Source of the DNA: a virus
Taxonomy: Duplodnaviria > Heunggongvirae > Uroviricota > Caudoviricetes
Virus record (IMG/VR): IMGVR_UViG_2534681736_000017
Reading direction: 5' to 3' (one strand)
Length of the DNA: 9,245 bases
The position numbers were made by a program, and so were the translations under genes. Shown in pieces: positions 4,210 through 7,510 of this stretch. Under the pieces are notes generated by a model. It had not been told where the DNA came from. It made no database searches and saw nothing but the letters and a program-made list of their open reading frames with translations. Every line of letters begins with the position of its first letter. Position 1 is the stretch's first letter.

Positions 4210-4532
4210 ACTTTCAGGTCCCTCTCATGTAACCAGTGGGTTGCACGCAGCCTTGCGTTTTCCTCACCGGCAAGCAGTGCGCGGATAATCCCGACCGCCT
4301 CGCTGTCGTCGTCCTTCACCGCGATATGAAGCGTTATCCCCCGGGCCACGCCACGCTTTATCGTGATGACGCCTTTTTTCTCCAGTGCGCGAAGATGCTC
4401 CACCGCTGCATTCACTGAACGGTATCCCAGCATGGTTGCCACCTCCTGATTGGTTGGCGGGAAGCCACGTTCTTTCTGATAAGAAATCAGCATATCCAGC
4501 ACCTGCTGCTGGCATTGAGTTAACGTCGTCAT
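4206..4532 (-). CDS. LexA DNA-binding-domain-only protein (108 aa), lacking the S24 peptidase domain
   Basis: Residues 3-70 (LTQCQQQVLDMLISYQKERGFPPTNQEVATMLGYRSVNAAVEHLRALEKKGVITIKRGVARGITL) align position by position with the E. coli LexA N-terminal winged-helix domain as I recall it (LTARQQEVFDLI...[36 protein letters not shown]...SRGIRL). Only about 35 residues follow, with no Ser/Lys dyad. ATGA overlaps at both ends. Confidence 0.8.
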   Translation of the reverse strand: MTTLTQCQQQVLDMLISYQKERGFPPTNQEVATMLGYRSVNAAVEHLRALEKKGVITIKRGVARGITLHIAVKDDDSEAVGIIRALLAGEENARLRATHWLHERDLKV

Positions 4533-5182
4533 GCCGCCATCTCCCTGACCAGTTTTTCTGCCTGCTGGCGAACCTGCGCCAGAAAGGCCTCACCACATGC
4601 CTCAAGTTCATAGCGCCCGATGTAGCTGATTGCCGGTCCCTTCCAGGTCTTGTCGAAAACAGCAATAGCACCAGCGAAGAAAGCGCCTGTCGGCACCTGC
4701 TTCTCATCCTTCGGGATAAACCAGGCAGGCAGTTCAAAACCAATACGCCCGCGAATAAAAGCAATATGATCTGCATCTTCCGGCCACCACACTTCGCTGG
4801 TGGCAGCTTTGATCAGGAAAACATAGCGCCCGCCTTTATCACGCATGGCACTGGCATGCTTCATGATGTAACGCATGCCGGTGATGTATTGCCCCTCATG
4901 CTGACTGGCGCGGCTGTATGGGGGATTACCAAAGGCAGCACCTTTAAGCTCCGCAAGACGTTCTGACCAGTCATGCGCCAGCGCGTTGTCTTCCGCAGTG
5001 TAATAAGCGGCACATTTGGCGTTATCACCGTCAGTGAACAGATCCAGAACAAACGGGCCAAACAGGGTGTTAATTCCCCAGAAAATGTTGTCCGGCGTGC
5101 GCCACTGATCGCCCACTTCCTTCAGTTCATGGGCTGGTTTGTTCCGCAGCTCCACCAGCGCCTGGCAATATTTATTACTCAT
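4529..5182 (-). CDS. Phage Dam-type N6-adenine DNA methyltransferase (217 aa from ATG at 5182)
   Basis: NPPY catalytic motif (FGNPPYS) is encoded at about 4916-4927. The ORF track extends to a GTG at 5215, but the ATG at 5182 has a GGGGG SD and overlaps the upstream stop as TAATG, so 5182 is preferred. Target specificity is unknown. Confidence 0.8.
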   Translation of the reverse strand: MSNKYCQALVELRNKPAHELKEVGDQWRTPDNIFWGINTLFGPFVLDLFTDGDNAKCAAYYTAEDNALAHDWSERLAELKGAAFGNPPYSRASQHEGQYITGMRYIMKHASAMRDKGGRYVFLIKAATSEVWWPEDADHIAFIRGRIGFELPAWFIPKDEKQVPTGAFFAGAIAVFDKTWKGPAISYIGRYELEACGEAFLAQVRQQAEKLVREMAA

Positions 5183-5670
5183 TAAGCCCCCACGTAATTC
5201 CCTGACAGATACCACTCTTCACCCGATACAGCGCGCTTGCTGCTTTTCCGTAAGCACCGCTCACAACGCGCCAGAAAATTGTTTCGTTCTGGCTGGGAGT
5301 GGCTTTCACGGAATGCCGCCATCCACACCGTTGCAGCACGACGGTATAAGCCCCTGGACTCCAGTTCTTCAGCCTGGCGGGTCAGGCACAAAATCACCCG
5401 GGGATCGTTAGTGCCGACATAGAAATTGCGCACAGGTCTGGTTTCACGAACTGGTTGTGGTTCCGGCTCCTGCGCTCTCTCAGTCAGGCGCGGGAAATGT
5501 CTGCGTGTATCCCCTTCACAACGGTGAGCCACACGCCCACTCTGACGTAACTTGCTTGCAGACTGCAGAACGCGCTGCCGTGAGTAACCTGCAAAAGCAT
5601 CCGCAATGTCTCCGGAAGTACAGCCCGGATGGGCTTCAATGAATTTCTGAACGTCATTCAAAAGACTCAT
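5182..5670 (-). CDS. PerC/ANR-family-like transcriptional regulator with an N-terminal extension (162 aa from ATG at 5670)
   Basis: LTRQAEELESRGLYRRAATVWMAAF matches the PerC-type signature (AE-LE--G--RRAA--W) by recollection. ATG at 5670 is preceded by GGGGGTGA; the ORF track starts at a GTG at 5676. Confidence 0.6.
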   Translation of the reverse strand: MSLLNDVQKFIEAHPGCTSGDIADAFAGYSRQRVLQSASKLRQSGRVAHRCEGDTRRHFPRLTERAQEPEPQPVRETRPVRNFYVGTNDPRVILCLTRQAEELESRGLYRRAATVWMAAFRESHSQPERNNFLARCERCLRKSSKRAVSGEEWYLSGNYVGA

Positions 5671-5672
5671 GC

Positions 5673-6614
5673 TCACCCCCTGAATCCTGCCGGGATCTGG
5701 CTGTAGTCCACGTTGTCGTAACTGGCTTTGAAGTACGGGTCCTCGCGTTTTTCGGTGTACGTGCTGACGGACGGCGATAAGCGCAGGGAAAGCTCATCCC
5801 ATTTTTCCCGCAGCTTCGACGGGCTGAGCACGTTACGGCACCAGAACGGATCGCGACTGACGCGGCTGTACATCTCGCAGATTTGTTTATGAGTACGACC
5901 ATCCTGCACACACATCAGGCGAATTTCGTTTGCCCAGGCTGTCCAGTTCGGTTCTTTGGGACGAACCACCTCGCCGTCACATTCGGCGGCATGCTCGTAC
6001 AGGGCGATGATTTTTTTCCAGAGCCACTGTGCACAGGTCAAATCATCCTGCGTCCCCCACTGGCGCTTTTTAGGGCTGAATACAACCGCATCAGGATGGC
6101 GAGTTAAAAAATCCTGTTCATCCGTCTGCGTGTCCGGTTGCGAAGCGTCCGGACGAGAAGGTTTTTTATCTGACGGATCATGTTTTGATTTTACTGACGG
6201 ATCCCCGCCAGATTCTGACGGGTGAAAACCCGCTTTTTTGCCAGATTTCGACGCATCAAATTTTGACGGGTCAGATTTTGATGCGTCAGATTTTGACGGG
6301 TCAGAATCTGACAGTTGAGAAAATGCCGCTGCCTGAAGCTTCGCAACGTTAAGCTGATAAACATTCGACGCATTGCGGTTACCCTGGCGACGCGCCTTAC
6401 GCGTTAACCAGCCTTCTGCTTCCAGCCGTGCGATAGCCGTTCTGACGGTGCTCATCCCCGCGCCAATCTGGCGGGCAATGGTTTCAATTGATGGCCAGCA
6501 CACACCTTCGTCATTACTGAAATCAGCCAGGCGGGCCATAATTGCCACGCTGGATAACTTCATGCCTGACGCAGCGCAACCATCCCATACATAGCCGGTT
6601 AATTTAGTGCTCAT
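5673..6614 (-). CDS. Replication initiator (O-like): N-terminal wHTH, repeat-encoded acidic/Ser-rich linker, C-terminal domain; 313 aa
   Basis: N-terminus (CWPSIETIARQIGAGMSTVRTAIARLEAEGWLTRK) is a winged-HTH of the kind seen in phage replication initiators. The central linker DPSKSDASKSDPSKFDASKS is encoded by tandem DNA iterons. SD GAGG with 6-nt spacing precedes the ATG at 6614. Confidence 0.7.
   Translation of the reverse strand: MSTKLTGYVWDGCAASGMKLSSVAIMARLADFSNDEGVCWPSIETIARQIGAGMSTVRTAIARLEAEGWLTRKARRQGNRNASNVYQLNVAKLQAAAFSQLSDSDPSKSDASKSDPSKFDASKSGKKAGFHPSESGGDPSVKSKHDPSDKKPSRPDASQPDTQTDEQDFLTRHPDAVVFSPKKRQWGTQDDLTCAQWLWKKIIALYEHAAECDGEVVRPKEPNWTAWANEIRLMCVQDGRTHKQICEMYSRVSRDPFWCRNVLSPSKLREKWDELSLRLSPSVSTYTEKREDPYFKASYDNVDYSQIPAGFRG
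6164..6313. repeat. Iteron array (about eight copies of roughly GATTYTGACGGRTCA), putative phage replication origin inside the initiator gene
   Basis: Copies begin near 6164, 6187, 6209, 6242, 6258, 6272, 6287 and 6303. The last four are contiguous at 15-bp period, for example AGATTTTGATGCGTCA, AGATTTTGACGGGTCA, GAATCTGACAG. This is analogous to the lambda ori iterons within gene O. Confidence 0.65.
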
Positions 6615-6623
6615 GACCGACCT

Positions 6624-6962
6624 CTATTTCCCTGAATTTACGACGAAACTGTTCGAGCGGGCTGAAGCACTCATGCTCATAGCCTTCGCGGAGGTAGATA
6701 ACCCGTTGTGTTTCCGGTTCCCAACGAATGACTCTGACGGGCACTCCGTAGTGATCTTTGAACCAGCGGTTAACTTGTCGCAAAGGACTGTCTCCTTTTG
6801 CCTGTTGAAATCACCCACAGCCCACTCTGCAAAGCTGTGGGTTACAATTTCCCTGTCACCTGGTACATTCACTGCATAGCAATACTCCACCTTCGCTTTT
6901 CCACCCGGTACAGGAAGTGCAATCAGTTGCGAGCGACGGTAGTGTGTTGTTAAACTGTTCAT
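6624..6962 (-). CDS. Hypothetical protein (112 aa) between the CII-like and replication genes
   Basis: Start ATG overlaps the CII-like stop (ATGA), and its stop sits immediately before the SD of the replication gene, which fits the coupled operon. No family recognised and the composition is unconvincing. A competing plus-strand ORF (6607-6879) exists. Confidence 0.4.
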
Positions 6963-7510
6963 GCGTTAGTTTCTCCACAGTCACGACACGCCACGGCGCC
7001 CGGAGCTGCACACTCGCGGGCGTCATTACTTTCTGAAATGCAAAAAATTTTGTAGACCAGTGCTGCATGCTCCTGCAGCTTCGAAATTGAGAGGTACAGC
7101 TCGTCGTTAATTGCTGTCTTCTCATGCGGTTCCACTACACCGTCTTCAATTGCTGAACGAATCTGTTTTGAATAACTGCCGATCTGTTCAATGACCTCCA
7201 GCAGGCGTTGGTTGATATCGGCGTTGTCCACATCCTCGACATCAGGAAGAGACACAAAGACGCCATTTGCAGACTGCGCCACAGCGTCAGCAATGAAGTG
7301 AGTTCCACCAGCACGTTGCAAAATCATTGCCCATCCCAGCGGGAAAATCTGATCGCCATCGGCACGAAGGCGGTTAAATAATGCGTTCTCTGTTACATCC
7401 AGCCAGTCAGCAGCTTCAGCGTACCCCCCCGGCAACGCTGCGATAGTTTTTCTGACAGCTTTCACGTACCACTCAGGCTGTTTTTCTACTTTCCAGTGAT
7501 GCTTACCCAC
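6959..7510 (-). CDS. CII-like phage regulatory protein (186-type CII family-like), 183 aa, GTG start
   Basis: [37 protein letters not shown] resembles the phage 186 CII segment (NKLNPEQPHQFTPPELWLL...LVDGFLAQ) by recollection. GTG at 7510 is preceded by AGGAGGT with 6-nt spacing and overlaps the Cro-like gene end. Confidence 0.55.

Follow-up and report, generated by a model that had tools for sequence, protein, structure and literature searches.

A dyad-repeat array inside the initiator gene as the probable replication origin of an SfII/SfIV-type lambdoid prophage

In phage lambda, four 18-bp dyad iterons and an adjacent 39-bp tract of high AT content form the origin of replication, which lies where gene O codes for the flexible linker joining the DNA-binding and P-binding domains of the initiator (PMC6022878; PMC7466680). 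In lambda and the Shiga toxin (Stx) phages alike, it is such iterons midway along O that serve as the origin (PMC7466680, PMC6022878), and the origins of the latter, such as that of 933W with six iterons in O, have gained and lost units together with matching insertions in the linker (PMC7466680). Here, we describe an array of short palindromic repeats within another phage replication initiator gene, found on a 9,245-bp stretch of DNA from a virus of the Caudoviricetes (IMG/VR record IMGVR_UViG_2534681736_000017), the whole of which is referred to as the window. With a rough probability of 0.8, the element at 6153-6320 is the cis-acting replication origin of a lambdoid prophage of the SfII/SfIV type, located inside its own initiator gene. 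The array is very probably an origin because it is conserved as DNA rather than as protein.

The repeats lie in a minus-strand open reading frame (ORF) at 5673-6614, which the initial annotation had taken for a replication initiator. This identification agrees with a match to PHROG 391, 'replication initiation O-like', at 4e-135, with a Pfam HTH_36 match at residues 23-70 (4.2e-11, alongside GntR- and MarR-type matches) and with a C-terminal domain resembling that of lambda O. The DNA at 5600-6700 is 98-99% identical to the Shigella phages SfII and SfIV and to several E. coli phages; in SfII, SfIV and vB_EcoS-569R4 the counterparts are annotated as 'replication protein O' or 'primosomal protein'. 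By tblastn, residues 166-277 share 39% identity with O of lambda, 21 and 933W, and 35% with gene 15 of phi80. A BLASTP comparison of the initiator with lambda O (7e-26) left residues 1-69 outside the alignment and paired residues 99-160 with the iteron and AT-rich segment of lambda O.

5673..6614, minus strand: replication initiator gene, 313 aa (PHROG 391, Pfam HTH_36, phage identity)
6315..6614, minus strand: region coding for the N-terminal winged-helix domain, residues 1-100 (AlphaFold), presumed to be the site-recognition module
6153..6320: element conserved at the DNA level and putative origin, initiator residues 99-154 (codon conservation; disordered linker)
5781..6119, minus strand: region coding for the C-terminal domain, residues 166-278, homologous to the lambda O C-terminal domain

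An AlphaFold model of the initiator, built on 40 homologues, contains an N-terminal domain with helices at 43-50 and 54-66 and a beta-hairpin wing (70-73 / 85-88), and a helical C-terminal domain (166-278) predicted with confidence (predicted local distance difference test, pLDDT, 87-96). The top PDB matches of the N-terminal domain in Foldseek were MarR/ArsR-type winged-helix proteins, all of them weak (E >= 2e-3), and a sequence search of the PDB returned weak MarR matches alone (E ~0.008), with no solved relative. Between the two domains, residues 103-154 have no predicted structure (pLDDT <50). The repeats encode residues 99-151, and it was correctly proposed in the initial annotation that they specify the linker joining the winged helix-turn-helix and C-terminal domains, and that the minus-strand frame reads as a repetitive peptide, DPSKSDASKSDPSKFDASKS (residues 105-124). 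The linker had also been called acidic and Ser-rich. It is rich in Ser (16 of the 56 residues at 99-154), but it is close to neutral rather than acidic (nine D+E against 11 K+R), the acidic stretch being the 14 residues that follow.

To describe the array itself, the 9245-bp window was searched for the pattern GATTYTGACGGRTCA, the consensus given in the initial annotation, with up to three mismatches, using 200 dinucleotide shuffles as the control. Eight matches were found, all at 6166-6308, against a mean of 0.74 expected from the shuffles, none of which reached eight (0/200); the eight copies span 6165-6314. The unit is a 13-bp dyad with the consensus GTCAGAATCTGAC, which reads GTCA(G/A)A(A/T)TCTGAC on the coding (minus) strand. 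Five dyads abut at a 15-bp period at 6240-6312, a sixth full unit is located at 6207-6219, and two half-units, GATCCGTCAG, are found at 6189-6203 and 6165-6179. The earlier count of about eight repeats therefore holds, but the contiguous run comprises five units rather than the four first reported, and the units had been described as direct repeats, missing their palindromic nature. The palindromic form of the units (GTCAGAWTCTGAC) explains why two of the eight pattern matches fell on the minus strand. Dyad symmetry within the repeats was confirmed by a site logo from 379 sites in 67 homologues, which gave the consensus TCAGAATCTGA, with the core TCA(G/A)AATCTGA and symmetric flanks.

6300..6312: dyad site 1, GTCAGAATCTGAC, a perfect 13-bp palindrome
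6285..6297: dyad site 2, GTCAGATTTTGAC
6270..6282: dyad site 3, GTCAGATTTTGAT
6255..6267: dyad site 4, ATCAAATTTTGAC
6240..6252: dyad site 5, GCCAGATTTCGAC, final unit of the 15-bp tandem run
6207..6219: dyad site 6, GCCAGATTCTGAC, 33 bp from site 5
6189..6203: half-site with GATC at 6200, coding strand GATCCGTCAGTAAAA
6165..6179: half-site with GATC at 6176, coding strand GATCCGTCAGATAAA
6151..6200: A-rich segment, a weak candidate unwinding region (lowest duplex stability in the gene)

Tandem Repeats Finder reported the stretch 6242-6305 both as 4.3 copies of a 15-bp period and as 2.1 copies of a 30-bp period, and it was the only substantial tandem array in the 9.2-kb window. A repeat search returned five in-register copies and many inverted repeats among the same units. 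Ala and Pro units alternate in the tandem run, which accounts for the 30-bp period; a larger near-perfect palindrome at 6250-6287, with 18-nt arms that are 89% complementary and 2 nt apart, arises from the same alternation. When the complete 41.5-kb SfII genome was searched, all site matches fell within the initiator gene.

Conservation was assessed in 80 genomic loci that code for this N-terminal domain and come from approximately 35 genera, mostly Enterobacterales. Of these loci, 72 to 74 gave usable distinct sequences depending on the analysis; 80 near-identical viral contigs and five annotated phages served as further samples. Among the 80 genomic loci, the array is present in every homologue of the N-terminal domain that has a complete gene. 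Codon usage within the repeats differs strongly from that of the surrounding gene. Among 238 S-D-x-S-K units from 74 distinct homologues, the first Ser is encoded by TCT in 84% (8% elsewhere in the same genes), the second Ser by TCA in 84% (16% of Ser codons elsewhere), Lys by AAA in 99.5% (61% elsewhere) and Asp by GAC in 82% (46% elsewhere). As two different Ser codons are fixed within a single five-residue unit, translational selection does not explain the pattern.

A codon alignment of 72 homologues was then used to contrast the N-terminal domain (residues 2-97) with the linker (residues 99-154). In the N-terminal domain, the entropies at codon positions 1/2/3 were 0.52/0.33/1.44, which is the classic protein-coding signature, whereas the linker pattern is different (0.58/0.52/0.76), even though amino-acid entropy is higher in the linker (1.15 vs 0.63). 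At conserved degenerate columns, the most frequent codon made up a fraction of 0.92 in the linker (n=23) and 0.53 in the N-terminal domain (n=63; Mann-Whitney p = 2.8e-11). Many linker codons with four- and six-fold degeneracy are invariant among the homologues that carry the consensus residue at the column concerned, for example V141 (GTA) and S140 (TCA). Counted in this way, D138 (GAT), S140 (TCA) and V141 (GTA) in the half-site at 6189-6203, as well as D146 (GAT) and S148 (TCA) in the half-site at 6165-6179, are each 100% conserved.

The best-conserved site among the homologues is dyad site 6, and it has been kept even where the reading frame has changed. Phage P27 L17 and a Citrobacter locus (L075) keep the 20-nt motif TTTsACCCnTCAGAATCTGr with one mismatch but read it as VLTLQNLD and VFTRQNLT, respectively, instead of FHPSESGG. 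Together, the codon and motif data show that the repeat DNA is under purifying selection independent of the protein.

An overlapping gene was considered as a source of the synonymous constraint and rejected, as both alternative sense frames are interrupted by stops within the element in 72 out of 72 homologues; none of the antisense frames across the element is consistently open in the same 72. The 60-aa ORF at 6191-6373 is present in the window and was rightly dismissed as spurious in the initial annotation. It is a by-product of the repeats, since no alternative frame is conserved as open.

The array follows the N-terminal domain and not the rest of the protein. At least four unrelated types of C-terminal domain are found downstream of it (lambda-O-like, DnaD-like, P27-like and the type of loci L082/L084). 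Repeats and DNA-binding domain together make up a single module open to exchange, which we liken, from sequence comparison, to the classical lambdoid specificity pairs. Its copy number shifts by whole 15-bp in-frame steps: between genera the number of sites ranges from 3 to approximately 10, while 5 of the 80 close relatives differ in protein length and their readable linkers show gains of whole units. A natural exchange of the opposite kind was observed in mEp460_4F5 (LR595868), in which the C-terminal domain is identical to that of the window from residue ~153 and the N-terminal domain is different. At the same place in this gene (L005 2068-2222) there is a different set of repeats, five of 23 nt at a spacing of 23-24 bp, followed by three AT-rich 12-mers (TATTCTCTGTAG). 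This array could be considered a second putative origin at the same gene position, with a layout more like that of lambda.

In the three most divergent lineages, with N-terminal identity of 52-58%, the dyad TCAGA...TCTGA has become CCAGA...TCTGG, with the outer positions of both half-sites changed together. In the same lineages, the recognition helix has changed from STVR to STVY or STVI. This covariation between half-site and recognition helix is no more than suggestive.

As had been noted initially, the arrangement is like that of lambda, the array lying at a position in the gene equivalent to that of the lambda iterons (residues 117-144 of O). We infer initiator binding, its dimeric mode and stoichiometry, the site of unwinding and the origin activity, and the following sequence of events can be envisaged. 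The N-terminal winged-helix domain, probably as dimers, would bind the 13-bp dyads (GTCAGAATCTGAC), of which five are placed head-to-tail every 15 bp and a sixth 33 bp further on, with the two GATC half-sites lying in an A-rich stretch. The resulting nucleoprotein complex could destabilise the A-rich end that carries the GATC half-sites, after which the helicase machinery would be brought in by the lambda-O-like C-terminal domain. There is room for an origin signal in this DNA because the disordered Ser/Asp/Lys/Pro linker that it encodes is only loosely constrained in amino-acid sequence. Having the sites beside the DNA-binding domain would also let specificity and origin move jointly when modules are swapped.

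Several observations weigh against this interpretation. There is no strongly AT-rich unwinding element, as the segment 6151-6200 is only ~1.6-1.8 standard deviations (sd) below the mean stability of the window. The 30-bp nearest-neighbour free energy at 6161-6191 is -36.0 kcal/mol (window mean -42.4, sd 3.5), which is the stability minimum of 5673-6614, yet it does not fall among the 12 least stable stretches of the window. The 15-bp spacing corresponds to ~1.4 helical turns, against about two turns in lambda, and makes adjacent sites face nearly opposite sides of the DNA. The window contains no gene resembling P, DnaC or DnaB, nor is one annotated in SfII, which leaves helicase recruitment unexplained. 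In addition, the homologues share descent, so the p-values and counts overstate independence, and the covariation of half-site and recognition helix is drawn from 3-6 lineages only. The contrast between linker and N-terminal domain is nevertheless robust, because in these same sequences the synonymous sites of the N-terminal domain are saturated. Inspection of the element by eye only gave no convincing match to an integration host factor (IHF) site or DnaA-box consensus.

The sole rival explanation that keeps an appreciable probability, although we consider it unlikely, is that the sites are operators or roadblocks through which the winged-helix protein, or another phage or host factor, regulates transcription or translation of the replication operon, with the origin being located elsewhere. 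The resemblance of the N-terminal domain to MarR/GntR-type repressors, which bind palindromes as dimers, would fit such a role, as would the lack of a convincing AT-rich unwinding element beside the sites. However, the protein carries C-terminal domains of replisome organisers, either lambda-O-like or DnaD-like, and the array is exactly where the lambda origin sits in O. It is also difficult to reconcile operators with mEp460_4F5, where another N-terminal module brings lambda-like iterons and an AT-rich set to the same place, or with the absence of a second such array in the window and of any other site in the SfII genome.

It is considerably less probable that the conserved DNA is a recombination junction between domain cassettes, or has been homogenised by gene conversion, and is not a protein-binding origin. 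This explanation draws on mEp460_4F5, phiNP and YeP3, chimeras whose breakpoints coincide with the gene-3' edge of the element, and on the four or more types of C-terminal domain that come after the same element. Homogenisation, however, predicts even conservation, whereas the middle codon and several residues of the units vary while the motif positions are fixed, and conservation of the element persists in homologues with as little as 52% identity in the N-terminal domain. The dyad symmetry and the 15-bp tandem phasing would also be left unexplained.

A constraint on RNA or single-stranded DNA structure arising from the palindromes, such as an mRNA fold or an antisense RNA, is very improbable. 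The minus-strand RNA of 6150-6322 does fold at -53.2 kcal/mol (z = -5.4 vs shuffles), and in the spacer between sites 5 and 6 the plus strand has a terminator-like hairpin at 6219-6232, CGGGTGAAAACCCG with CTTTTTTGCC after it. However, any array of identical palindromes folds well, which makes the fold uninformative; it is the sequence that is conserved and not merely the pairing, and the stem within each site closes a loop of 1-3 nt, which is sterically poor. An Rfam scan of the whole window gave no family at threshold, and no sigma-70-like promoter was detected in a scan of 5600-7000. The hairpin at 6219-6232 is antisense to the initiator gene and has a stem of 5 pairs; four terminator-like hairpins were counted in 5600-7000 against 1.7 expected.

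It is just as hard to maintain that the repeats are a by-product of slippage or duplication in a low-complexity protein linker with no function as DNA: the region does encode a Ser/Asp/Lys/Pro-rich repeat that is predicted to be disordered, and its copies change by 15 bp in frame, with lengths differing in 5/80 close relatives and from 3 to ~10 units between genera, but synonymous conservation greatly exceeds that of the neighbouring folded domain, whereas conservation of the amino acids is lower, two Ser positions per unit have different fixed codons, the motif is retained in another reading frame, and the DNA palindrome of each unit is not needed at the protein level.

Returning to the origin, the two half-sites raise the question of methylation. 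GATC occurs in both of them (6176 and 6200) in 55 out of 72 homologues, and wherever a homologue has Asp at the two half-site columns the codon is GAT, while it is mostly GAC in the tandem units. In 36 of 73 loci, a Dam-family methyltransferase gene was detected no more than ~1.3 kb downstream of the initiator, either directly or after a YfdN-like gene, and the same placement was found in Klebsiella phage 1 LV-2017, phiNP and YeP3. It may be, therefore, that the origin relies on the phage-encoded Dam for firing or sequestration.

4529-5215, minus strand: Dam gene
5182-5676, minus strand: PerC/YfdN-like gene, 164 aa, its start overlapping the initiator stop
5676-5708, minus strand: tail of the initiator, residues 303-313, DYSQIPAGFRG
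6604-6783, minus strand: ORF for a DUF4222 protein, 59 aa, TTG start (strong family match)
6624-6962, minus strand: ORF for a PHROG 1170 protein, 112 aa (strong family match), overlapping the DUF4222 ORF

The initiator also ends in a conserved tail. The motif [IVL]PxGFR[GS] was observed at the end of 46 of the 73 initiators with this N-terminal domain and array, whatever the type of C-terminal domain, and residues 281-313 alone also match replication proteins of the cdtI, 2H10 and Stx2c phages. This tail may serve a partner protein as a short linear motif, with a bearing on helicase recruitment, and direct recruitment of the host helicase machinery by the tail is one possibility. The annotation of the SfII genome includes neither a helicase nor a loader. 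The GATC half-sites together with the Dam gene, and the shared C-terminal tail motif, suggest a self-contained, methylation-gated origin that works without a dedicated helicase loader, although we regard this as a doubtful proposal.

The window as a whole is a lambdoid early region, with genes for a cI-like repressor, Cro-like and CII-like proteins, the initiator, the PerC/YfdN-like protein, Dam, a LexA-like protein, RusA and others. The stretch 5600-5748, covering the last codons of the initiator and the start of the YfdN-like gene, is 97-100% identical to many phages whose initiators are otherwise different, which suggests that the tail is passed on jointly with the next gene. Both the DUF4222 and the PHROG 1170 ORFs lie just upstream of the initiator, and DUF4222 is annotated beside it in most plasmid and prophage matches.

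The element is common. The 301-bp stretch 6100-6400 matches 2059 out of 5426 complete E. coli genomes (38%), and the N-terminal domain with its array is found in prophages of ~35 further genera, mostly Enterobacterales. Among the ten E. coli matches listed, the gene is annotated only as 'helix-turn-helix domain-containing protein' with no origin feature, and the SfII record has no origin feature either. A literature search returned general papers on lambda and Stx origins and no description of this origin, and the SfIV genome paper is silent on both an origin and iterons. An origin within an initiator gene is a textbook principle, but this family of sites appears to be undescribed. A search for small plasmids with the gene as their sole replicon returned prophages in large replicons or misassigned chromosomes. 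One match, a 15.2-kb E. coli 'plasmid' (OR902851.1), has a gene content (icd fragment, mcrA, hin, tfaE) like that of an excised circle of an e14-type prophage, and its copy of the initiator gene is apparently split into several short ORFs.

A defined origin with a 13-bp site would provide a concrete annotation rule for this replicon type. The site could also be used for predicting the replication specificity or incompatibility of co-resident lambdoid prophages, including the Shigella serotype-converting phages SfII and SfIV. The locus would be a clean natural example of an origin written into the coding sequence of a disordered linker, and it could offer lessons beyond lambda through its 15-bp head-to-tail dyads, its GATC half-sites near a phage Dam and its lack of a P-like loader.

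When compared with replicons outside the lambdoid phages, only general features are shared. Iteron origins of theta plasmids, with initiators of the RepA, pi and TrfA type, consist of direct repeats of ~17-22 bp phased by about two turns, located outside rep and bound by a WH1-WH2 Rep protein. They resemble the present array in combining repeated sites with a winged-helix initiator and in having a variable number of sites, but the present sites are palindromic, spaced at 15 bp and contained in the gene. The initiator had no match to Pfam Rep_3, and its sole weak match, to RP-C, was below the cut-off of that family. Origins inside initiator genes are reportedly also found in P22 (gene 18) and SPP1 (gene 38, oriL). 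With these the locus would share the principle of initiator sites within their own coding sequence, while the domain families and repeat sequences probably differ.

Among lambdoid phages, mEp460_4F5 shares the C-terminal domain and a repeat array at the same place in the gene, but it has its own N-terminal domain and 23-nt repeats with an AT-rich 12-mer triplet. The Stx phage origins also have a variable number of sites, which here is 3 to ~10 between genera and differs by one or two units among close relatives; they differ in having lambda-type iterons and a lambda-type O N-terminal domain, with sequences unrelated to GTCAGAATCTGAC.

Compared with the lambda origin, the N-terminal domain here is unrelated (HTH_36, not the lambda O N-terminal family), the sites are 13-bp dyads every 15 bp instead of 18-bp iterons at ~20-24 bp, and there are six full sites and two half-sites where lambda has four. 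There is no tract as AT-rich as the 39-bp one of lambda, the least stable stretch of the gene, which abuts the sites at 6151-6200, being only moderately A/T-rich. The half-sites have a conserved GATC, and no P gene comes next, the downstream genes being PerC/YfdN-like, Dam, LexA-like and RusA. What the two have in common is the homologous C-terminal domain (39% identity over residues 166-277; BLASTP 7e-26), the order of the sites along the gene, where they precede a less stable A/T-rich part (a weak one here), and the placement of dyad sites within the initiator's own gene, where it specifies the linker between the two domains.

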